This document shows, piece by piece, positions 1,015-34,431 of a stretch of 64,000 nt of DNA. The notes under the pieces were generated by a model, which did no database searches, was not told the origin of the DNA, and saw only the letters and a program-made list of their open reading frames with translations. The DNA comes from Candidatus Babeliales bacterium (lineage in GTDB: Bacteria > Babelota > Babeliae > Babelales > JANWKD01): the NCBI GenBank assembly GCA_963722075.1, contig CAVRJM010000001.1, positions 1,088,001-1,152,000 on the forward strand, read 5' to 3'. Each line of letters opens with the position of its first letter. Within the stretch, counting starts at the first letter, position 1. Both the position numbers and the translations under genes were made by a program.

Positions 1015-1158
1015 TGTCATCCTGAGGAGCCAAGGCGACGTAAGGATCCAGGAATAAAATGAAAAATTCTTATAAATGGATCCAGCCTACGCTTATCCAC
1101 GCCTACCGGTTTGGCAAGCTACGGCGGACGCAGTCCCCACGCTTCGCATGGAATGACA
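1015..1158. repeat. Palindromic intergenic repeat pair (TGTCATCCTGAG...GGATCCAG / TGGATCC...GAATGACA) with nested GC-rich hairpin
   Basis: Inverted units bracket an AT-rich spacer; the same family recurs about 10 times in the window. Confidence 0.85.
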
Positions 1159-23937: not shown

Positions 23938-24501
23938 TTATAACCAAAAACTACCAAAATATTTTGCAAATAATTCTATACCTTCTTGCAGCTTTTGGCG
24001 ATGCTCTTCAAACTTTTTACTAAAAATTTCAAGGCTAGGCCGCATAAGCTCTGAGTATCGATTCCATTCCAAAGATTCTAATGCAGCAGGTCCTTTGATA
24101 TTTTTAAATCTCTCTTTATCTTCTTGTTTTAATTTTTTTAACTCTTTTTTATGTACCCTGCCAAGCTTACTGCATTCTTTATAGTACTCTTTTTCTGATG
24201 GCCCATCCCAACCACGATTCTTAGCTATCCATTCAAAAGAATAGACCATTTTATCCAAACACTGTAGCCATTCATCAAACCTATCGAGATTATCTGGACC
24301 TTCTGGTTTTGTTGGATCCGGGGCAAAATCCATAGGATATCCTTGATATCCTTTATGTTTATCATATCTTTTACGATATTTTTTTAAAAAAGGATAAATG
24401 ACACGAGCTAAGGTAACATCACCGTTCCATAAATCATCGTACGTTACGGATACCTTTACTTTATCTTTAGTTTTATCTTTATAAGTGATTGATACTTTCA
24501 T
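23938..24501 (-). CDS. Phage-like hypothetical protein
   Basis: DLWNGDVTLARVIYPFL..GYP..W..LDKMVYSFE..QEGIELFAKYFGSFW resembles a phage hypothetical family (recalled, unverified). Confidence 0.55.
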   Translation of the reverse strand: MKVSITYKDKTKDKVKVSVTYDDLWNGDVTLARVIYPFLKKYRKRYDKHKGYQGYPMDFAPDPTKPEGPDNLDRFDEWLQCLDKMVYSFEWIAKNRGWDGPSEKEYYKECSKLGRVHKKELKKLKQEDKERFKNIKGPAALESLEWNRYSELMRPSLEIFSKKFEEHRQKLQEGIELFAKYFGSFWL

Positions 24502-24671
24502 GCTATTTCCAACGAAAACATTTACCAAAATAATATAAACATAATGCAATAATTGAACTTGAAGTAGTATTTCTTGAGAGACTCGAACTCCCATAGCCAA
24601 TACAGGCATTTTACCCAATTTTCTTCCGAAGAAAAAAATTACATCTTATGATGTGTTAAATCAAAGAAATA

Positions 24672-24932
24672 CTACAAATTATTGTCAATTGATGAAAAAT
24701 ATCGACGCAAAAATATCCTGCCTGCATTTGATTTTAAGTATCATTCAAATTTTAAAGCTTTAGCTTCTTGATCAAATCCCAGAAATCCTATCAAAACCCA
24801 TGGTTTAAAATCTTTCGTGTACACTGATTTCCCCGCGTTATGGTCTAATAATCTTTGCTTCAAATTAGAAGTAAAACCTATGTAAGTTTTATCGGGAAAA
24901 GATCGGGATTTAAGATAATAAACGTAAAACAT
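24672..24932 (-). pseudogene. Small GIY-YIG nuclease with in-frame TGA
   Basis: MFYVYYL..TYIGFT..RL..HN..T..KPW...FE*YLKSNAGRIFL; homology continues past the TGA at 24741-24743. Confidence 0.85.
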
Positions 24933-25000
24933 ATTTTATATTTAATTGTTGGCCTGTAAAAAGCTGACTTGTCAGAGACATTAAAGAGTAAAGTTTTGAC

Positions 25001-25035
25001 TGGCCTGCCAGGCATTTTTCTTCAGGAAAAATGAC
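25001..25035 (-). repeat. tRNA 3'-trailer hairpin element
   Basis: CCA|GTCATTTTTCCTGAAGAAAAATGCCTGGCAGGCCA. Confidence 0.7.
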
Positions 25036-25113
25036 TGGCGTCCCTAAGGGGATTCGAACCCCTGTTTTCGCCGTGAAAGGGCGGTGTCCTGGACCAGGCT
25101 AGACGATAGGGAC
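25036..25113 (-). tRNA. tRNA-Glu(TTC)
   Basis: GTCCCTATCGTCTAG...CTTTCAC...GGTTCGAATCC...GGGACGCCA; CCA is encoded. Confidence 0.95.
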
Positions 25114-25142
25114 GTAGATTATATCAAAAATCCTTAAAAGAT

Positions 25143-25194
25143 TGGCGGAGCCAGGCGTAGTTTGCCGAGCCGGAAGGCCCGGATAAACGAAGAC
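25143..25194 (-). repeat. tRNA 3'-trailer hairpin element
   Basis: CCA|GTCTTCGTTT...AAACTACGCCTGGCTCCGCCA. Confidence 0.75.
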
Positions 25195-25270
25195 TGGTGA
25201 GCCGCGATGGATTCGAACCATCGACCCACAGCTTAAAAGGCTGTTGCTCTACCAACTGAGCTAGCGGCTC
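25195..25270 (-). tRNA. tRNA-Lys(TTT)
   Basis: GAGCCGCTAGCTCAGTTGGTAGAGC...CTTTTAA...GGTTCGAATCC...CGGCTCACCA. Confidence 0.95.
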
Positions 25271-25315
25271 GCTTATCATTAATGCAAATAAGAATAATTC
25301 TTAATGATGCTCTTA

Positions 25316-25344
25316 ATGTTAATGATTTGCCTTATTTTTGTCAA
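25316..25344 (-). promoter_or_regulatory. Sigma70 promoter of the tRNA-Lys/Glu operon
   Basis: TTGACA-17 bp-TAACAT on the minus strand. Confidence 0.6.
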
Positions 25345-25488
25345 GAAAATAAAGTCACAAACAGCATTTTTCCTATTAAATAGTATTATTTTATCTGATC
25401 TCATTAATAATACCTTACTATAATAGCCAAGGAACCATTACGTGAAAAAAATTAATTATGGTTAGCGGTATAAAAAAATGAAATTACC

Positions 25489-26736
25489 ATGAAAATAGAA
25501 TCTATAAAAGATCCCCGAATCATTCATGCACGTAAACTATCTTCTGCAGCAGGCCGTTCAGAAACCAAAGAATTTTTATTGCAGGGTAAGGAACAAATAG
25601 AATGGGCTTTGAGAGCAAATGTGCCTATTACCATGGTTTTTATTCATGATAAAATCGATGACAATCAGTTACAACAAAAATTTGAATATAAAAAAATTCC
25701 TTATTTTTTCGTTTCTGAAGTAATATTGAAAAAAATAACTGACACAAACTATTTGGTTCCGCTCGTAGGAGTAGCTAAAAACCCTATCGTATCTACTCAT
25801 AATGAAGATTTTGTTATTGTACTTGATAACCTTGTTGATCATGGAAATATAGGGACGATTATCCGTTCTGGACTTGCTTTTGGCATTCATTCTTTTATAA
25901 GCACAAGTATAACTGCTGATTTTTTTTATAAAAAAATTATCGATGCATCACGTGGCAATATTTTTACTTCATCTATAAAAAAATTCGTTTCTGAACAAGA
26001 AACTATCAACTATTTAAAAAGCAACGGATATCAAATAGTTGCAACAAGTCCTCATGGAAATCAAATTCAATCTCTCCTACAACTTCATCAAAAACCAGTC
26101 GCGCTCATTGTGGGTAATGAAACAGAAGGATGCTCATCATTATTTCTTGAACAAGCTGATTTCGTTACTCAAATTCCTATGAGCTCTGAAGTTGAATCCT
26201 TAAATGTAGCCATCGCTGCTGGCATTAGTATCTATGAACTTAAAATAAAATCGGTAATAGCAATGCTTATTCAAAAAATTTATAAAAATATAGGACGACA
26301 AATTGGCGTTACAGGACAATTAATTCGAACAGCATTTGATAAAGAGTTACAAGCCGTAACTGATTTTTCTGCTCTACAAGTTATCCTTTTAATGATACTA
26401 AAATGCGATCAAGTTATGACGCTCGAACAAGTCTCAAGGGATGTAGGCGAGTTTGGAGCAGAACTTATAGCCTTTTTGCAGCCATTACAAAAAAAAGGAT
26501 ATATCAGCAATGCAGTGTCACAAGAAAAACCTGCAATAATATTAACGGATGCGGGACAAGAATATTTATCAAAACTGTGGCCGATTGTTGATAAAATTGA
26601 ACAAAAAATTTTAAATAATTTTTCTGAAAACGAAAGGATTCAATTTTTTGAATATATCTCCAGAATCCAAAATAATTGTCAGCAAATTATTAAAGATCAT
26701 TCATCAAATTCGATTGTTAAAGATATAAAAAAATAG
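25489..26736 (+). CDS. TrmH/SpoU RNA methyltransferase fused to a C-terminal MarR-like domain
   Basis: GNIGTIIRS, VGNETEG and ESLNVAIAAG motifs; the C-terminus has the MarR pattern (Q..LL..L, MT..Q.S, GYI, LTDAG, NNFSENE). Confidence 0.85.
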   Translation: MKIESIKDPRIIHARKLSSAAGRSETKEFLLQGKEQIEWALRANVPITMVFIHDKIDDNQLQQKFEYKKIPYFFVSEVILKKITDTNYLVPLVGVAKNPIVSTHNEDFVIVLDNLVDHGNIGTIIRSGLAFGIHSFISTSITADFFYKKIIDASRGNIFTSSIKKFVSEQETINYLKSNGYQIVATSPHGNQIQSLLQLHQKPVALIVGNETEGCSSLFLEQADFVTQIPMSSEVESLNVAIAAGISIYELKIKSVIAMLIQKIYKNIGRQIGVTGQLIRTAFDKELQAVTDFSALQVILLMILKCDQVMTLEQVSRDVGEFGAELIAFLQPLQKKGYISNAVSQEKPAIILTDAGQEYLSKLWPIVDKIEQKILNNFSENERIQFFEYISRIQNNCQQIIKDHSSNSIVKDIKK

Positions 26737-26829
26737 GGTGTTTTTATGAATCTAACTCTATATGCTTATACATCAAGAATAAAATTAATTATTATTACAC
26801 AATAGTTGTTATCAAATAAGGAGAGATAT

Positions 26830-27174
26830 ATGTTAGCTTTATTTTTACCCTTCACCATAAGTTTATTATTTACTTTCAACCTATTTAGCATGCAAAAAGA
26901 AACTTTTCTGGAGAAAATTAATGAATACAATACCACTTTAATTAATATGGATTTAACCGTTATTCCAACACTAGAATCTAAGATACAAGCAGTAGCAAAT
27001 CTAACAAAGTTAGAAAATATTAATAAGCAATTAAAAGCTATGCTCCCACAACGCCGATTGAATAATGAAGAAACTCATCAAATGAGCGAATTAATAACCA
27101 CACTGGCTTCACATAACAAAACAATACGTGACAATATTGAAGCATGTACCTTCAACTCGTCACAAAACAATTGA
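26830..27174 (+). CDS. Hypothetical secreted protein
   Basis: AAGGAG RBS; signal peptide followed by MQK. Confidence 0.6.
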   Translation: MLALFLPFTISLLFTFNLFSMQKETFLEKINEYNTTLINMDLTVIPTLESKIQAVANLTKLENINKQLKAMLPQRRLNNEETHQMSELITTLASHNKTIRDNIEACTFNSSQNN

Positions 27175-27189
27175 ACAGAATTTCTAAAA

Positions 27190-28344
27190 CTACAGCACTA
27201 TCGGCGTTTTTTTAGTTCTCATTTTGGCAAGCAATGATTTATCAATCCCTAAATGGGCATGCACCAATTCAGGCGGGGTAAGTGCCAACCATTGGGCTAA
27301 CGAAACATCAGCAAAGCGATCACTTCTAAATATCTCTAAAAAGCGGAGCGTCTCGTTGCCGATATTTTCAATATAATGGCCCATGGCAAAAGGAACTACG
27401 CCAACATCACCCGCTTGATAATTAAAGGTTCGTGCCATACCAACCGCTGCAAATACCGTCATACGCGCCTTACCGGTAATATAAAATTGCCATTCATCAG
27501 CATTAGGATGCCAATGCAATTCACGTAATCCCCCCGGTTCTATTTCAACCAATGCCGCTGCTATTGTTTTGGAGGCAGGAAATATGGTGGAATCAACAAT
27601 GCGCACCTGACCACCCGGCATACGAATTGGTTCTTGAGCACTTAAGCGATAACTAAATTTTTCGGGAACCGGTCCATTTCCTTTGATATAATCTGCCGTA
27701 AGCGGACCAGGAACTTTTGATTGAAAAATGTAGAGTTCTTTTTTTGGTAATGTGTTTAATACTGAAATAGGAAAATTAAAGTTTTTAGCTATTACTTCTT
27801 TGGGCGTATGCAATAACCAGTCAGATAATAAAAATGTTTCTTCTTCAGAAAAGCTACCGTCATCAAATACTAATAAAAATTCACACCCATCTGGATTAAG
27901 GCCTTGTATAGAATGCGGTATTCCTTTGGGAAAAAACCATAAGTCACCTTCTTGCATATCATCTTGAAAGGTACATCCATTTTGATCAACGGCAGTAATA
28001 CGCGCAAATCCTTTGAGCATGTATGCCCATTCAGCTGCTTTATGCCAATGCAATTCTCGGATTGCACCAGCTTTTAAGCGCATATTGACGCCAGCAATAG
28101 TGGGGGAGCTTGGTAAATCTACCACGGTTACTTCGCGTGACCAGCCGCCTTCTTCTAAGCGCATATGGCTATCAGAAAATGACCATTTAAGATTTGGTAT
28201 TTTACCGCGATCAGTGCGCGGTGGCACTAAAATATCAGGATTTTCTAATTCTCTAGATGGATTGGTGGGGCCAAGAATTGAGGCACCGTATACGCCATCG
28301 ATGGGTTCTAATTGATTACCTTTTTTACCATTTTTCTCATTCAT
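27190..28344 (-). CDS. oxdC: Oxalate decarboxylase family bicupin
   Basis: Two RELHWH...EW cupin motifs, [17 protein letters not shown] and GHYIEN. Confidence 0.88.
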
Positions 28345-28436
28345 ACTACCGCCTCTTCAATACTATTACTATGCGGCGTTAAGTATAAAATAATGAAAAT
28401 GAGCTAAACAATGATTTAAGGAACTAATTTAATTAA

Positions 28437-28465
28437 TGGATCCCCACGCGCAGCTCGGGATGACA
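28437..28465. repeat. Palindromic repeat unit
   Basis: TGGATCCCCACGCGCAGCTCGGGATGACA, a near-identical inverted copy of 57796..57823. Confidence 0.85.
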
Positions 28466-28514
28466 TTTCTGCAGTTATCATTATCGCATGAAGAATGACA
28501 GGTTTTGCCAAAGT

Positions 28515-29333
28515 TTAATTTTGAAATGATGCTTCACCAGTAATTGTATCATTCTTCTTCGATTTACGTCGTTCTTTATTCAAAAGCACCCGATTATAAA
28601 TAGCATCATCTTCAATGCGCTCTAAATTCATAAGCACTTTAAAGGTCTCCCAACTGGTGCGAACAATGGGCGGTGGATTATGCCGGTGCTGCCAAACGTA
28701 TAATCGTGTTTTAGGATCAGCAGGGCTACCACTGCCAAAATCTCCATATTTTCTTTTGTATTTTCTATACTGCGCATCGGAAGCAACCTTGGCAAGTATA
28801 GAAGCGGCGCCTACTATCGTATGATTTTCGTCAGCGTAATGTTCAGGAATTAAATTAAGCGCTTTTATTTTCTTTTTATTAAAGACAAAGCCTTTTTGTG
28901 CCAAGAGTTCTTTATGTGATGCATCAGTCAGCACAATTAAGCGTTCTCTAAATCGCTTTTCCGATACTTCCCAATTATCAATATAGATGTTATTAAACGT
29001 ATGCTTACGTTGTAATTTTTTAATAAGTTGTAAAACGGTTAACATTTCCCAATCATTTAACCCCAATGATTTATCATCAATCATTTGTGGTGTTAACTCA
29101 ATAAGGGCAAATCCATGCGCCGTTTCTTTAATTATTTTTGCAAGTTTCTCTCGCTTTTTTGCTGCAATCAACTTGCTATCTTTGACACCTATTTTTTTCC
29201 ATTCTTCTATAGTTGATTGATTGGCAACTACACCTGCAATAAAGATACTCCCAATACAGGGGCACTTAGTGGTATCATCAATACCAAGTATATTTTCGGT
29301 ATTTAAGGGAATTTCGTTAATTAAATCGGACAT
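28515..29333 (-). CDS. rnhB: Ribonuclease HII-like protein (divergent, archaeal-type C-terminus)
   Basis: GID, GVKDSK, IYID, AASILAKV and GSGSPADPKT motifs. Confidence 0.75.
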   Translation of the reverse strand: MSDLINEIPLNTENILGIDDTTKCPCIGSIFIAGVVANQSTIEEWKKIGVKDSKLIAAKKREKLAKIIKETAHGFALIELTPQMIDDKSLGLNDWEMLTVLQLIKKLQRKHTFNNIYIDNWEVSEKRFRERLIVLTDASHKELLAQKGFVFNKKKIKALNLIPEHYADENHTIVGAASILAKVASDAQYRKYKRKYGDFGSGSPADPKTRLYVWQHRHNPPPIVRTSWETFKVLMNLERIEDDAIYNRVLLNKERRKSKKNDTITGEASFQN

Positions 29334-29402
29334 GTAACCTCCAAAAAGTATATATAGTTAAGATATAAGTATCTCAACTATTGTCAAATGGTAATACCTT
29401 CG

Positions 29403-29846
29403 TTACCAGTGTTTTGTTATATACCCATCAACTGAAAAGGGGCCACCGCCAATAAGGAGAAATGCACCATACACAATTAACAATGAGAGGGGAAAGGAAT
29501 AGATATTATACGGATCACCATGATTAATATGCCACATAAATGCCACCCACATCATAAATACTAATGCAGCACTGGCAATGCGCGTACCAAAACCAGCCAC
29601 TAACATAATACCGCCAAAAAATTCAGTAATAGCCGCTAAAAAGCCCCACATAACGGGTAGAAAATGAATGCCGATGGGAGCTACATACATTCCTAATTCC
29701 CGCCACATTGGTATACCGCCCATTATTTTAGGGATGCCATGGCCAATGGTTAATATACCAATACCAATGCGAATAAGGGTAATAGCGTAATACGTCCAGG
29801 TTAATGAGGCAGGCGCTAATAGATATTGCAATAGAAAATTCATCAA
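29403..29846 (-). CDS. DoxX family membrane protein
   Basis: LIRIGIG..HGIPK, EFFGG..GFGTR and GGGPFSVD motifs. Confidence 0.85.
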   Translation of the reverse strand: MMNFLLQYLLAPASLTWTYYAITLIRIGIGILTIGHGIPKIMGGIPMWRELGMYVAPIGIHFLPVMWGFLAAITEFFGGIMLVAGFGTRIASAALVFMMWVAFMWHINHGDPYNIYSFPLSLLIVYGAFLLIGGGPFSVDGYITKHW

Positions 29847-29938
29847 TTTCTCCTAAAATTACTATTTTCTTTTTATCAAGATTTTATGCCCGTGTATTGT
29901 ATATATACCATGGTAGGTATACCTATTTTCAAGAAATC

Positions 29939-31240
29939 TTAATAGGAAAGTAAATGTCGATTACGCAAGGCCAAAATAACAATACCAAGAAGGTTAGGTA
30001 GCGCAACTAAGGGAAGTGCTAAATCCATAATAGCCCAAACAAGCGGAACTTCTATCATTGAACTAATAAAAATTACCAGTGCTACAAAAGCGTAATAACC
30101 TCGTATCCAACGATAATTAGTTAGGGTAGCAAAACTTTGACCACCATTAAAGCTATTGCCCAGCGCTGTAGTAGCAATAAACAACGTGACGCTCATTAAA
30201 AAAAAGATTGGCCCTACGGTTGGTAAATTTTTTTCAAAAACCTGCAATACCAACGTATTACAAAAAGTTCCTTGGTGCCAAATATTGGAACTCAGTACTA
30301 ATAATCCTGATAAAAAGCATAAAAACATATCCGCACTTTGCGAGTACATAGCTAAAATCCCCTGATCAATGGGCCGCTTAACATCTGAAATAGCATGCGC
30401 GATTGAAGCGGTCCCCATTCCTGATTCAGTAATAAATACTGCTTTAAAAACGCCTTCCTTAAGCGAAGAATATACCGTAGCTCCTAAAAATCCGCCAATA
30501 GGCGCAACTGGATAAAAAATAGAATGAAACATGCTGGTAAGTGCATAATAAACTGAACCAGGCATTGACGCTAATATCCAAATACTGCATAGAACATACG
30601 TTACAAACATTAAGGGAACTAACTTACTAGCAACATTGCCTACGCGTTGCGCACCACCCAGTAAAATTAAAAAAATAAACAACGCCAGTAGAAATCCGGT
30701 AACATATTCTGGAACACCGCGTTGAGCACCAATTTCTGCCAGTGCTTTTGATTGAATGCCTGACCAACCAGCAAATAGAAAAATAGTAGCAAATCCATAC
30801 CAACGCGCAAAATAAGGGTGCACTGCCTTTAAATATTCTGCCGGCCCACCAATTATTCTTCCATCAGATAATGTACGCCGATATACGAGTGCAAAAGTAA
30901 CTTCCACTAATTTAGTAGCTGCGCCAAAAAACGCATATAATAGTAACCAAAAAAGGGCGCCTGGCCCACCTACCACAATCGCTAATGAAGGGCCAACAAT
31001 AGTCCCTATACCAATAGAGCTTGCCATAGAAGTAAATAATGCATGGAAGGCATCAATTGTTTTTAAAGAGCCATGCTCTCGTTTAAATCCCGCAGTAATA
31101 AATGATAGAAAATGCCTGAATGCAAAAAATTGGGGTACTTTTAAAAATAGTGTTAAGAAGAATGCCACGGTAAAAAATAAGAAGGCAAAAGGGATGCCGA
31201 TCAACAAATTTATAGTATTAAGAAGAGTAATTAGATCCAT
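29939..31240 (-). CDS. Alanine/glycine:cation symporter (AGCS family)
   Basis: GGPGALFW, GGPAEY, ESGMGT and ALPNL motifs; multi-TM. Confidence 0.9.
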   Translation of the reverse strand: MDLITLLNTINLLIGIPFAFLFFTVAFFLTLFLKVPQFFAFRHFLSFITAGFKREHGSLKTIDAFHALFTSMASSIGIGTIVGPSLAIVVGGPGALFWLLLYAFFGAATKLVEVTFALVYRRTLSDGRIIGGPAEYLKAVHPYFARWYGFATIFLFAGWSGIQSKALAEIGAQRGVPEYVTGFLLALFIFLILLGGAQRVGNVASKLVPLMFVTYVLCSIWILASMPGSVYYALTSMFHSIFYPVAPIGGFLGATVYSSLKEGVFKAVFITESGMGTASIAHAISDVKRPIDQGILAMYSQSADMFLCFLSGLLVLSSNIWHQGTFCNTLVLQVFEKNLPTVGPIFFLMSVTLFIATTALGNSFNGGQSFATLTNYRWIRGYYAFVALVIFISSMIEVPLVWAIMDLALPLVALPNLLGIVILALRNRHLLSY

Positions 31241-31342
31241 ATGGTTCCAACAATTAATGACTAACGACAATTTAATAAAATATTGAAATTAATTAGAGCA
31301 GTTGAATATCAACATCGGTAATGAATAGTGATAACAACAAAA

Positions 31343-31418
31343 CGTCGTTGCGAGCTCGTCGAAGCAATCCAGAAAAAATATTTTAACCTGGATCACCACG
31401 GCCTAAAGGCCTCGTGAC
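31343..31418. repeat. Palindromic repeat pair whose second unit is interrupted by IS481 (continues at 32585..32593)
   Basis: CGTCGTTGCGAGCTCGTCGAAGCAATCCAG...CTGGATCACCACGGCCTAAAGGCCTCGTGAC|IS|GTGACGACG. Confidence 0.85.
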
Positions 31419-32584
31419 TGTATGTGTTCATAATTTCGAAGAATAATTTACACCCAAGAAACTACAGTTGTCCATTAATTACTATCTTTTTTCTTAAAAG
31501 GGGCTGCAGGAGTCGCAGTAAGCATTGAGGAAGGAATTTTGCCATCCAAACCCTGATGAGGGCGATGCTCATTATAAAAAAAGTTATAACCGAGTACAGC
31601 ATCCTTTAACTCATCGAGAGTATTGTAAACAGCACCTTCAATAACCTCATCATGAAAAGTCCTCCAGAAGCGCTCAATCTTACCATTGGTCTGAGGCCGA
31701 TAAGGCCTTGTTTTAATGTGTTTGATGGCGAAGTGAAGCAATAATCGCTCAAAGGGATGGTTCTTAAGATTCTTTTCAGAAGAACAAAATTCAGAGCCAT
31801 TATCAGTTAAGACTTCATCAAAAGTAATGCTATAGCGCTGATGCATATGTAAAATAACATCCATCATAGCAAAGGCAGCATCAATAGCTTTGATGGACTC
31901 CATTACCTCAACCCAGACTACCCGAGAGTAATCATCAATAACACCAAGAACAAAATAACGAGTATTAGGTTCTGATACGATAATTCCCTTAGGCAAATAA
32001 TGGCAATCAATATGACCTAATGAACCAGCATGAGTTCTCACAATTTTTCTTTTTTCCTCTCGTGCTAAAGCAGACAATCGAGAAACACCATACGTCCGCA
32101 ATGTACGATAAACTGTGCTTGCTGATATTCGTTTGGCATTAGGATGTTTCTTTTGTAACGTCTGAGCAATAATATATCTATTATATCCTAATTTTCTATA
32201 ATCCAAAATCTCATTTGTAATCTTATCATCTGCCAGAGGCAATTCTTGGTATTTTGGTTTAGGGCCAGGTCTCATAGGCAGTAAAGCATTTGGATTTCTA
32301 TTTGAATTTATAAAACGCCCATAAAATTTATAGAAATTTTGATAACCGATGTCGTTAGCTTTAAAAAATTCACGAACTTTTTTATATTTTGGATGATTCT
32401 TAGCTTTGACTAATTCGTATTCTTCAACGAATTTAAGCAGATATTTAATTGAATTCTTATGTAAAGTATTATACGATATATTTGCACTCATAGTAATTCC
32501 TATTGTTAAATATTGTTGTTGTTATTTTTAACTTTAGTTTACTATGGGTGTCTTTTTTATTCACCAGAATTTTGAACTTTTACA
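31419..32584 (-). mobile_element. IS481-family insertion sequence
   Basis: TGT...ACA ends, imperfect TIR (TGTATGTGTTCATAATT / TGTAAAAGTTCAAAATT, 13/17) and a 5-bp TSD GTGAC. Confidence 0.9.
31475..32491 (-). CDS. IS481-family DDE transposase (rve integrase core)
   Basis: HID, IDDYSR, TDNGSEF, PQTNGKIERFWRT and YNEHRPHQGL motifs. Confidence 0.93.
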   Translation of the reverse strand: MSANISYNTLHKNSIKYLLKFVEEYELVKAKNHPKYKKVREFFKANDIGYQNFYKFYGRFINSNRNPNALLPMRPGPKPKYQELPLADDKITNEILDYRKLGYNRYIIAQTLQKKHPNAKRISASTVYRTLRTYGVSRLSALAREEKRKIVRTHAGSLGHIDCHYLPKGIIVSEPNTRYFVLGVIDDYSRVVWVEVMESIKAIDAAFAMMDVILHMHQRYSITFDEVLTDNGSEFCSSEKNLKNHPFERLLLHFAIKHIKTRPYRPQTNGKIERFWRTFHDEVIEGAVYNTLDELKDAVLGYNFFYNEHRPHQGLDGKIPSSMLTATPAAPFKKKDSN

Positions 32585-32708
32585 GTGACGACGAGAATGC
32601 AAAAGGATTTCATTGTGACTGCGAAATGACCCATCGGCATGACGCGCTGGCAAATAATTTTTCCCTACTTTGCATTAATCAGCATATTAATTTCAATATT
32701 TGACCACC

Positions 32709-33305
32709 TTATACTCTTTTTGAAAGAAATGAAAGCGCCTTACGCAATAGTTGATCAAAGGAAGCAGATACTGGTAATGATTCCTTAAGATACGATAATG
32801 TATTATTTATCTCTGTCCGTGAATAATTGAGCGATGTTAATGTCTCAGAAACCGTATGCCAATGGGTATATTCATCAGCAATTTCATCGATACCGCCGCT
32901 TTCAATCAATTTTGCCACCTTATGGCGTAATTGCATAATGATTTGCTCAGCTTTTTTTGCTCCAATACCACTAACAGCACTCAATGCTTTTTCATCATTA
33001 GCATGCACTGCCTTTAAAAAAGAACCGGGTGACATGGCCGATAAAAGCGCAAGCGCAATTTTAGGGCCAATACCGGAACAGCTAATAACTAGAAGAAAAA
33101 CGGTTTTTTCCAATGCCGTTTGAAATCCATATAATAACGGCCCATTTTCTTGATGCCATTGTAAATGAACGTAAAAAGAATATTGTTGCCCTTTTGTAAG
33201 AGCTATATTCTGCGCTACATAGAGTTGATAGCCAACCCCATTTACCTCACAGGTAACTGCTTGGTCTTTGTACTCAATTACGGTGCCTCGTAAAAAATTA
33301 ATCAT
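32709..33305 (-). CDS. ruvA: Holliday junction branch migration protein RuvA
   Basis: VNGVGY, LYGF, SGIGPK and GIGAKKAEQI motifs. Confidence 0.95.
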   Translation of the reverse strand: MINFLRGTVIEYKDQAVTCEVNGVGYQLYVAQNIALTKGQQYSFYVHLQWHQENGPLLYGFQTALEKTVFLLVISCSGIGPKIALALLSAMSPGSFLKAVHANDEKALSAVSGIGAKKAEQIIMQLRHKVAKLIESGGIDEIADEYTHWHTVSETLTSLNYSRTEINNTLSYLKESLPVSASFDQLLRKALSFLSKRV

Positions 33306-33389
33306 AAAAAGCCTCAAAATATGATAATTTCATTAAACCATTGAACTAAAAATTTCATTTTGTAATAATAATATAAAAAGGATCTTTCT

Positions 33390-33764
33390 ATGATCAATAA
33401 AAAAATCGCTATTTATGTACTTTTACTTTTTATTACCCCTTTATATGCATCCCTTCGCTTGCGCCGCAATATGTATACCTTAAATATTACCTATAATGTT
33501 TTTGGGCTCAACCCTAAGCAATATATCTGCGCTTATGATGATATTGCAAAACAAGTAGTATGCGAACCAAAAGATATTACTGATCCTTATGCCAATGACA
33601 TTCAGGTATTTCGCAATGTATATGTACGTAAATTAACCTCAGATCCCGTTGGTATTGGCTACATCGGTTATTTCCAAAACCCCAATCTTAATGCCGGTCC
33701 TCCACATGAGTATACCAGTACCCGTACTATTTTCCCGTTTGAAGTATATGCTTCAAAGTATTAA
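33390..33764 (+). CDS. Hypothetical secreted protein
   Basis: AAGGA RBS and signal peptide. Confidence 0.6.
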   Translation: MINKKIAIYVLLLFITPLYASLRLRRNMYTLNITYNVFGLNPKQYICAYDDIAKQVVCEPKDITDPYANDIQVFRNVYVRKLTSDPVGIGYIGYFQNPNLNAGPPHEYTSTRTIFPFEVYASKY

Positions 33765-33769
33765 TTGTA

Positions 33770-33797
33770 TTGACAACTATACTATTTTTGTTAGAGT
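33770..33797 (+). promoter_or_regulatory. Sigma70 promoter of tRNA-Gly
   Basis: TTGACA-16 bp-TAGAGT. Confidence 0.55.
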
Positions 33798-33814
33798 TTT
33801 AATAACTTTCATTC

Positions 33815-33889
33815 GCGGGAATAGCTCAGTGGTAGAGCGTTGCCTTGCCAAGGCAAAGGTCGCGGGTTCGACCCCCGTTTCCCGCTCCA
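33815..33889 (+). tRNA. tRNA-Gly(GCC)
   Basis: GCGGGAATAGCTCAGTGGTAGAGC...TTGCCAA...GGTTCGACCC...TTCCCGCTCCA. Confidence 0.95.
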
Positions 33890-34036
33890 GTCTTCGCTCC
33901 TACGGAGCTTCGCCTGGCGCCGCCATTTTTTTAAATGAAGATAATATTATTAGCACAGTGAAAAGCGAAGACTGTCCGGCATAGCTTGTAGTAACGAAGC
34001 AATTGATAAGGGTCAAAGCAGAAAGCGCCGACGGAC
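33890..34036 (+). repeat. tRNA 3'-trailer hairpin element plus structured leader of the GIY-YIG gene
   Basis: CCA|GTCTTCGCTCCTACGGAGCTTCGCCTGGCGCCGCCA; 33888-33898 is perfectly complementary to 33964-33974. Confidence 0.75.
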
Positions 34037-34054
34037 TATAAATATATCTACCTT

Positions 34055-34297
34055 ATATATTATGTTTACATTATCAAATCGGTTAATTTTCCTGGAAAAA
34101 TATATATTGGCTATACCCTCAATATAAAAACGCGATTACAGACGCATAATGATGGTGGATCAACTTTCACTAAGGATTATAAACCATGGGAAGTAATCTT
34201 TTATGGCACTTTTCAGAATAAATTGAAAGCATTAAACTTTGAAAAATACTTGAAATCCCATTCAGGTAGAGCATTTTTAATAAAACGATTATTATAG
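34055..34297 (+). CDS. Small GIY-YIG nuclease (80 aa) with ATA at the start position; missed by ORF track
   Basis: Hand translation gives IYYVYIIKSVNFPGKIYIGYTLNIKTRLQTHNDGGSTFTKDYKPWEVIFYGTFQNKLKALNFEKYLKSHSGRAFLIKRLL*. Confidence 0.8.
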   Translation: MYYVYIIKSVNFPGKIYIGYTLNIKTRLQTHNDGGSTFTKDYKPWEVIFYGTFQNKLKALNFEKYLKSHSGRAFLIKRLL

Positions 34298-34431
34298 GCA
34301 GCCATTTTCTCTTAAATGAGGAATATCGTGACGCGATAACCCAATTATGGTACATTCTAAAGTAGTAACGGTAGCTATTTTTCATAGTTAGCAACCTTTT
34401 AATCTGAATGAATCCAATGGTAAAGGATTAT

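Follow-up and report, generated by a model that had tools for sequence, protein, structure and literature searches.

Why should a hairpin begin at the very base after the encoded CCA of a transfer RNA (tRNA) gene, and why should a small nuclease gene follow it? The question is raised by a 64,000-nt stretch of the genome of a Candidatus Babeliales bacterium (the window), in which hairpins of one design directly follow tRNA-Glu, tRNA-Lys and tRNA-Gly, with a GIY-YIG gene behind the first and the last. Across homologous loci, these parts form a cassette of about 400 bp that consists of tRNA-CCA, a hairpin (H), a spacer, an inverted copy of the hairpin (H′) and the GIY-YIG gene; many copies are gene-less. 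Because repeat and gene travel together, and cassettes replace each other between species, the cassette is likely a tiny selfish element. We think it probable that it spreads by nicking and copying, and that it is specialised on ends in which a stem is followed by NCCA.

Anatomy of the cassette and its nuclease

The features of the window are as follows; G000 denotes its genome (1.47 Mb, 35% G+C, 36 tRNAs and a transfer-messenger RNA, tmRNA), and G001 onward its relatives.

33770..33797, plus strand: sigma-70-like promoter of tRNA-Gly (TTGACA-16-TAGAGT), a consensus match only
33815..33889, plus strand: tRNA-Gly(GCC), a host target; encoded CCA at 33887-33889
33890..33925, plus strand: hairpin H at tRNA-Gly (GTC-TTC-GC...GC-TTC-GCC-TGG), plus a tail ending in a second CCA
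33965..33974, plus strand: a′ box (GCGAAGAC-TG), which complements CA and the opening 8 nt of H without a mismatch
33978..34036, plus strand: H′, the inverted copy of H, its loops degenerate at this locus; purine loops on the top strand
34055..34297, plus strand: GIY-YIG gene at tRNA-Gly, 80 codons, with ATA where an ATG start is expected
34298..34319, plus strand: remnant repeat of the H tail (GCAGCCA...TTAAATGA) directly after the stop, recognised by sequence; similar remnants occur at other loci
25316..25344, minus strand: sigma-70-like promoter of the Lys-Glu tRNA pair, a consensus match only
25195..25270, minus strand: tRNA-Lys(TTT), a host target
25143..25194, minus strand: gene-less hairpin H after tRNA-Lys, with a long nested inner stem
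25036..25113, minus strand: tRNA-Glu(TTC), a host target
24997..25035, minus strand: short ATTT-type hairpin H at tRNA-Glu, with tail and second CCA-GTC (the 'octamer')
24672..24932, minus strand: GIY-YIG paralog at tRNA-Glu, with an in-frame TGA at codon 64 (24741-24743)
1085..1125, plus strand: non-tRNA copy of the hairpin core, beginning after GGATCCA and adjoining a CGTC-type repeat

The initial annotation had placed the trailers at 25001-25035 (Glu, minus strand), 25143-25194 (Lys, minus strand) and 33890-33925 (Gly, plus strand), and there they are, each starting one base after the encoded CCA; the linker between GCCTGGC and GCCA, given as 1-3 nt, measures 2-3 nt. Both GIY-YIG genes are confirmed by Pfam (PF01541, E 3e-15 and 3e-10), lie on the strand of their tRNA and start 103 nt (Glu) and 165 nt (Gly) after the CCA. 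The inverted H′, the damage to both window genes and the evidence in favour of DNA over RNA had been overlooked. The TGG of the tRNA-Gly hairpin is able to pair with the tRNA CCA, and folding the trailers together with the tRNA end gave z scores of −3.5, −2.4 and −2.0 (Glu, Lys and Gly, respectively). The tRNA-Lys trailer is identical to that of tRNA-Val(TAC) at 45/45 nt. The remnant at 34298..34319 is probably the right edge of the Gly cassette. Transcription from the tRNA-Gly promoter would also run on into the cassette. That the nuclease gene uses the tRNA promoter is plausible, given the constant orientation, the promoter-like sites upstream and the lack of a terminator in between.

An alignment of 54 homologs served to fetch homologous loci. 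Of the 599 loci confirmed in GTDB, the best 80 were taken, and for these the seed pattern favours the nearest subfamily; another 30 came from 41 related genomes. The consensus starts with tRNA-CCA, then X-TNC-GC-loop-GC-TNC-X′-TGG (H) and C-N(1-3)-G-CCA-X; a spacer, GC-GNA-X′-TG (a′), H′, a short spacer and the gene follow. The left junction is exact at the CCA, which is encoded in 85/86 loci; the right edge is variable, near the stop codon, and often bears an H remnant. In 64 parsed loci of the 86 with a tRNA within 600 nt, the first three bases (X) covary with the 3′ arm in 55 and with a′ in 59 (maxima of 2000 shuffles, 30 and 35); for the non-GCC types only, the counts are 23/28 and 24/28. 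The bases following the second CCA match the X of the element in 12/26 loci (shuffles: mean 3.0, maximum 8), and the second GCCA-GTC occurs in G000 behind tRNAs with A as well as G discriminators. The octamer GCCAGTCA is indeed present twice at tRNA-Glu, as first reported. Its interpretation as a target-site duplication, of the type left by MITEs or insertion sequences, was rejected, since the second CCA-XXX goes with the element and not with the target, whichever the discriminator; the octamer at both ends is instead an internal repeat that permits a second fold.

The link to tRNA genes is strong. A strict trailer pattern matches at 24/37 tRNA or tmRNA genes of G000, as against 407/36,711 (1.1%) of other CCA sites, and four more trailers recognised by eye (Phe, Gly-TCC, Thr-TGT and Ser-TGA) bring the total to 28/37. 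A same-strand tRNA or tmRNA lies at most 400 nt upstream of the nuclease gene in 63 of the best 80 GTDB loci; other placements are rare (opposite strand upstream, 1; same strand downstream, 4; opposite strand downstream, 1). Among relatives, the count is 20/26, with the window's own locus and three weak matches excluded. Motif and paralogs are therefore both strongly enriched at tRNA ends, the point on which the initial annotation had staked its proposal. The GTDB loci come from Pseudomonadota, Verrucomicrobiota, Acidobacteriota, Lentisphaerota and other phyla. The RNA genes targeted are of 17 kinds, tmRNA 13 times, with no isotype preference beyond a skew to Ala, tmRNA and Arg. Rfam returned only tRNA and tmRNA matches and nothing for the trailers, and a 6S RNA was looked for in G000 and not found. 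By analogy with BIME-1, the spacer was scanned for IHF sites, which are not enriched (3/24 in G000 at one mismatch; shuffles: mean 1.2, maximum 6).

The nuclease is a single-domain protein of 79-80 residues, spanned over nearly its full length by PF01541. Tyr5, Tyr17, Gly19, Arg27, His31 and Glu63 are invariant in the 54-sequence alignment, in agreement with the catalytic set described for HIGLE and SsnA, and the gene at tRNA-Gly keeps the catalytic Tyr/Tyr/Arg/His/Glu. The structure model (pLDDT 95.7) has HIGLE and Slx1 as its nearest folds, both of them nucleases of branched DNA. In nearly all of the fetched loci the open reading frames (ORFs) are 78-92 codons long, with no separate DNA-binding domain; most are intact. 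The family is large, with 929 matches for one query and members in 29/41 related genomes at E 1e-8, weak cross-matches included.

As a control, we used the Ssn-type GIY-YIG genes of the same 41 genomes, a label that rests on the CGTC hairpins at those genes and on characteristic motifs. Such proximity to a tRNA was found in 0/20 of them. In a tree, 37 tRNA-type rows (every third locus) separate from 17 Ssn-type rows (3 with stops omitted) with support of 100/100; the nuclease thus forms a separate, Slx1-like clade, distinct from Ssn. The published SRM repeat pattern matches 0/107 tRNA-type loci, yet just 2/20 Ssn-type controls, so the pattern is too strict to discriminate between them. By eye, a CGTC or TGTC hairpin lies upstream of most Ssn-type controls; its place is taken by H/H′ at tRNA-type loci.

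Both genes of the window are likely in decay, with their nuclease supplied in trans by an intact gene (C1:371244-371483) that lies 193 nt after tRNA-Gln in G000; a broken fourth copy lies on contig C4, behind a related hairpin. Homologs have ATG where the Gly gene has ATA (34055), and this gene is likely weak or decaying; a public contig that may derive from the source sample is identical over 33945-34095, ATA included. The TGA at codon 64 of the Glu copy also occurs in G004 (L180, 16034-16270, reversed), and the C4 copy has CGA there. Between the Glu and G004 copies, 19 codons differ silently (5 beyond the stop) and 7 by replacement (none beyond it). Their common TGA may reflect a parallel CGA-to-TGA change or read-through.

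Mobility and replacement

The interval between tRNA-Gly and jag offers a clean comparison of sites: it holds the whole cassette in G000, is empty in G001, G002, G003 and G004, and contains a gene-less H of another type in G014. The tRNA-Glu locus was also considered as an empty site in relatives, wrongly: islands intervene, with the cassettes displaced to the far ends. One and the same non-tRNA junction, where the tRNA-Glu island has its far end, is the starting point of three different cassette types in G003 and G004. Within a genome trailers are homogenised; at the same tRNA they differ between relatives. Trailer matches have a median of 9 in 24 relatives with a good nuclease match and of 1 in 12 without (P = 5e-5, a value that ignores kinship; four weak-match genomes, with 4, 7, 0 and 5 trailer matches, were excluded). 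The nuclease-negative relatives still have their tRNA ends (32-53 matches).

Replacement is seen at a tRNA-Ala of Bradyrhizobium, where the flank is present in 45/61 genomes, 30 of which were fetched. The element starts at the CCA in 30/30 alleles; 25 have the gene and 5 are remnants of 31-66 nt. Hairpin and nuclease types are linked without exception, X=CGC with nuclease type W in 14/14 and X=GCC with type K in 10/10 (24/24 together); a further allele is a broken chimera. When the types are mapped on a tree built from 1.2 kb of neighbouring host DNA, 9 changes are required (shuffled mean 8), of which at least 5 are forced by starred branches; W/K sister pairs have 99% support. Because the types are linked and yet scattered over the host tree, cassettes appear to have been swapped as units, overwriting each other. 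Position, empty site and swapping thus favour the minimal, mobile hairpin-plus-nuclease element at tRNA 3′ ends that the initial annotation had proposed, in the modified form described here.

The islands themselves are inserts of about 4-16 kb at tRNA-Glu in G001 (9.7 kb), G003 and G004 (L178-L180). Those in G003 and G004 start with a serine-recombinase gene (Pfam-checked for G003), and all three carry what look like RelE/HTH-like gene pairs. In G003, G004 and contig C4, the far end is recognisable by a conserved 90-nt stretch that terminates in an NCCA remnant resembling tRNA-Glu.

Working form, mechanism and rival explanations

Several features indicate in which form the hairpins act. The internal-loop triplets of H read T-N-C on the tRNA strand (58/62 and 48/62). 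In H′, whose parsing was noisy (44/68 loci), they read G-N-A on the top strand in 24 and 25 of the 44 parsed loci and T-N-C in 0. The terminal loops of H and H′ are mirror images (CAAG/TAAA versus CTTG/TTCA). In G000, the segment between CCAG and CTGG is inverted in place in 4 of the 24 trailers, and the loop alone in 2, which suggests DNA-level events at an extruded hairpin. Sheared G·A pairs give a fixed G and A around a free middle base. The stability of d(GNA) is reported in PMC13037366 and PMC3201870. Since H has G-N-A on the template strand only, the working form is likely single-stranded DNA on both strands, and H and H′ likely act as DNA rather than RNA. The asymmetry of G·T and A·C in the stems was dropped as an indicator because mismatches were too few.

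We propose the following mechanism. When transcription or replication of the tRNA gene unwinds the DNA, H and H′ would fold as single strands on opposite strands, with sheared G·A pairs. The nuclease, made by read-through from the tRNA promoter, would nick the single strand at the foot of the hairpin. The nicked end, with its TGG/CCA, would be joined to a further stem-NCCA end by way of the CCA that both have, and no target duplication would arise. One-ended copy synthesis would then extend it. In this way host repair would copy the cassette to other tRNA ends, as an insertion or an overwrite. As the tRNA gene stays intact, the cost is small. The enzyme may cut its own hairpin, in the manner of SsnA, or a naive or rival allele, as in homing: gene-less copies favour the first, allele replacement the second. 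With less assurance, we suggest that this may be the smallest autonomous site-specific mobile element known to us. What its nuclease would recognise in single-stranded DNA is not a sequence but a shape, namely a stem with NCCA as its 3′ tail, and the TGG would serve as a guide pairing with the target CCA. Some 400 bp would be pasted or converted at tRNA, tmRNA or tRNA-like ends without integrase or transposase, with rival pairs displacing each other across many phyla.

The rival explanations are taken from the least improbable downward. An RNA-level system, in which the trailer is a 3′ switch of the pre-tRNA (one fold masks the CCA, the other pairs a with a′) and the nuclease trims it for tRNA maturation or regulation, would account for the exact start at the CCA, the pairing of TGG with CCA, the two alternative folds with covarying bases, the shared strand, and the trailers at tmRNA and at a conserved 70-nt element ending in CCA. 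It is nevertheless unlikely: the trailer is dispensable, with 0-2 matches in 10/12 nuclease-negative relatives that have full tRNA sets; the subtype at a given tRNA varies between close relatives; what is conserved in H is the complement of G-N-A loops, and H also occurs inverted in place; and the nearest folds and SsnA act on DNA.

A second rival has to do with the repeat family at large. In G000, 105 copies of the hairpin core were counted, 17 of them within 450 nt of a tRNA end (shuffles, 3-9). Among the 88 others, 37 finish with the TGG/CCA foot as well, and 75 are next to or within CGTC-type repeats (expected at random, 15%), so mobilisation of nested repeats by the element, part of the initial annotation, is plausible. 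The foot on non-tRNA copies implies that the CCA also belongs to the element's own end, which fits joining by a shared CCA. The hairpins could instead be REP-like hitchhikers, spread by Ssn-type nucleases or template switching, while the tRNA-type gene collects in tRNA hot spots. G000 does contain three Ssn-type genes and 84 CGTC-type repeats, which adjoin those 75 cores, and the ATTT trailer resembles the head of NTS repeats, GTCATT. We rate this as rather improbable, however, since Ssn-type genes were found in only 10/41 genomes, and G010, G023, G026 and G040 have 18-19 trailers without one; moreover, 0/84 CGTC-type repeats lie near tRNA ends, and hairpin and nuclease remain linked in 24/24. 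The position of the other cores beside CGTC-type repeats does allow for cross-talk with the Ssn system, which is the main rival explanation of the copies away from tRNAs. The three Ssn-type genes lie at C1:1398408-1398695, 140112-140399 and 1361610-1361855 of G000 (L003, L152 and L159), and two were seen to be flanked by inverted CGTC hairpins.

We give little credence to a domesticated gatekeeper, a nuclease that cuts incoming single-stranded DNA with the hairpin and thereby guards tRNA ends, where attachment usually takes place, against integrative elements or foreign alleles. SsnA of Neisseria lowers transformation by repeat-bearing DNA (PMC11893778), most fetched ORFs are intact, and the Glu and G004 copies differ mainly at silent sites. 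Such a guard is nonetheless hard to reconcile with the serine-recombinase islands at tRNA-Glu in G003 and G004, the insert in G001 and the displacement of cassettes to far ends, and patchy presence, frequent decay and type swapping fit selfish turnover. Finally, plain intrinsic terminators, which the initial annotation had named as a refuting alternative, were rejected as very improbable: the stem is G+C-rich, follows a stable RNA gene and has an A+T-rich stretch about 10 nt further on, but four T within 8 nt of the stem occur in 0/24 trailers, a terminator scanner made no call, and trailers are present inside tRNA operons (Lys before Glu).

Several points weigh against a selfish nick-and-copy element. 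Cutting and copying are inferred. GIY-YIG chemistry is hydrolytic, so joining needs host repair. No tRNA lies within 400 nt in 17/80 loci, several of which keep an (N)CCA junction behind a tRNA 3′ fragment. Of the 105 hairpin cores in G000, 88 are not near a tRNA, and most of these adjoin CGTC repeats, which come with Ssn-type nucleases of their own. As to a vehicle between species, only 3 relatives were found in the viral collection, with no tRNA in these loci (L175-L177). G014 has 14 trailers, and a nuclease was not found in it; nuclease-negative genomes are also smaller (0.8-1.2 Mb), which makes streamlining a confounder of the co-occurrence. At the Bradyrhizobium tRNA-Ala, none of the 30 alleles is empty, and old polymorphism with ordinary recombination could also scatter the types. 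Duplications of the tRNA 3′ end behind the gene, in 5/86 loci (control mean 0.28), hint at a second, integration-like route. Pyrimidine loops occur in RNA too, which makes the strand logic an argument, not proof.

Further structures and genes were noted nearby. The 70-nt element is not a tRNA, ends in CACCA and has no Rfam match; it is found at C1:881756-881826 and 871863-871931 of G000 (L162) and in G001 and G003 (L090 and L095), is always followed by a trailer or full cassette, and is possibly an unknown small RNA with a CCA end. Directly after the Glu nuclease gene lies a 110-nt multi-stem structure (window 24564-24675, minus strand; z −5.0), with further copies at about 5728-5835 of C4 and in G004 (L166) and compensatory changes among the three. 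It has a tRNA-like 3′ geometry (T-arm with TTCGAGT, 7-nt acceptor strand, A-CTA); ARAGORN and Rfam made no call, and pattern scans found it in 2/41 genomes and not in viral or metagenome contigs. Downstream of the tRNA-Glu nuclease gene, G000, G001 and G004 share a gene for a 186-residue protein with no Pfam match (window 23941-24498, minus strand). A SpoU/TrmH RNA methyltransferase gene (25489-26736, plus strand) is divergent from the tRNA-Lys promoter; Pfam covers residues 9-249 only, and the long C-terminal extension looks MarR-like. An rve integrase-core transposase gene, IS481-like by appearance, occupies 31475-32491 (minus strand).

Comparison with known systems

No description of the element was found in the literature searched, whose coverage leaves out subscription journals and supplements. 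Integrative elements that target tRNAs use tRNA or tmRNA 3′ ends and leave the gene intact. The cassette differs from them in having no integrase, a length of about 400 bp and 3′-end duplication in few loci.

The homing endonuclease SegB of phage T4 is likewise encoded by a free-standing GIY-YIG gene located among tRNA genes; it propagates its own locus, with allele replacement (Edgell et al. 2010, PMC2988022). In contrast, the cassette is chromosomal, with few viral matches, uses any tRNA isotype and has dedicated hairpins. Seg enzymes also have a separate DNA-binding domain, which the tRNA-end nuclease lacks. Slx1 and At-HIGLE are the nearest solved folds (E 2.4e-4, 6.9e-4) and share the Tyr-Tyr-Arg-Glu catalytic set (PMC9071465). 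The cassette protein, however, is a bare catalytic domain, patchy, multi-copy and tied to a repeat, unlike a housekeeping repair gene.

If the proposal is true, the cassette spreads at safe-harbour tRNA sites without integrase or transposase, and its nuclease is a second family of hairpin-specific single-stranded DNA nucleases beside Ssn; the cassette would also be a testable case of REP-like repeat multiplication. It would give a role to a very common 'putative endonuclease' family and explain the repeat at three quarters of the tRNA ends in G000. The paired hairpin-enzyme types (W/CGC and K/GCC) offer a test of specificity and possibly compact tools; the window contributes a clean empty/filled site, an internal Ssn control and linked-type swapping.

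The closest parallels are two repeat systems. SsnA (cd10448) cuts single-stranded DNA next to its own hairpin repeat, and Ssn with its NTS/SRM repeats shares with the cassette a small single-domain GIY-YIG gene beside its own repeat, many gene-less copies and a proposed selfish origin (Chenal et al. 2025, PMC11893778); the word 'tRNA' is absent from the main text of that paper. The tRNA-type nuclease differs in its clade (identity to Ssn is 33% over 55 residues) and its length, and its hairpins both lie upstream of the gene instead of flanking it, have a G-N-A loop core and are anchored at a tRNA or tmRNA CCA. REP/REPIN repeats with RAYT, and CGTC-tagged repeats, resemble the cassette in their inverted hairpin doublets, genome-specific subfamilies and non-autonomous copies (Di Nocera et al. 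2013, PMC3733652), a paper that does not mention GIY-YIG; a CCA tail also terminates the CGTC repeats. The mobiliser of the cassette is a GIY-YIG enzyme by Pfam and fold, not an HUH/Y1 tyrosine transposase, and its targets are the ends of stable-RNA genes. We conclude that the cassette works like Ssn/SRM and REP/RAYT and belongs to neither, being set apart by clade or chemistry.

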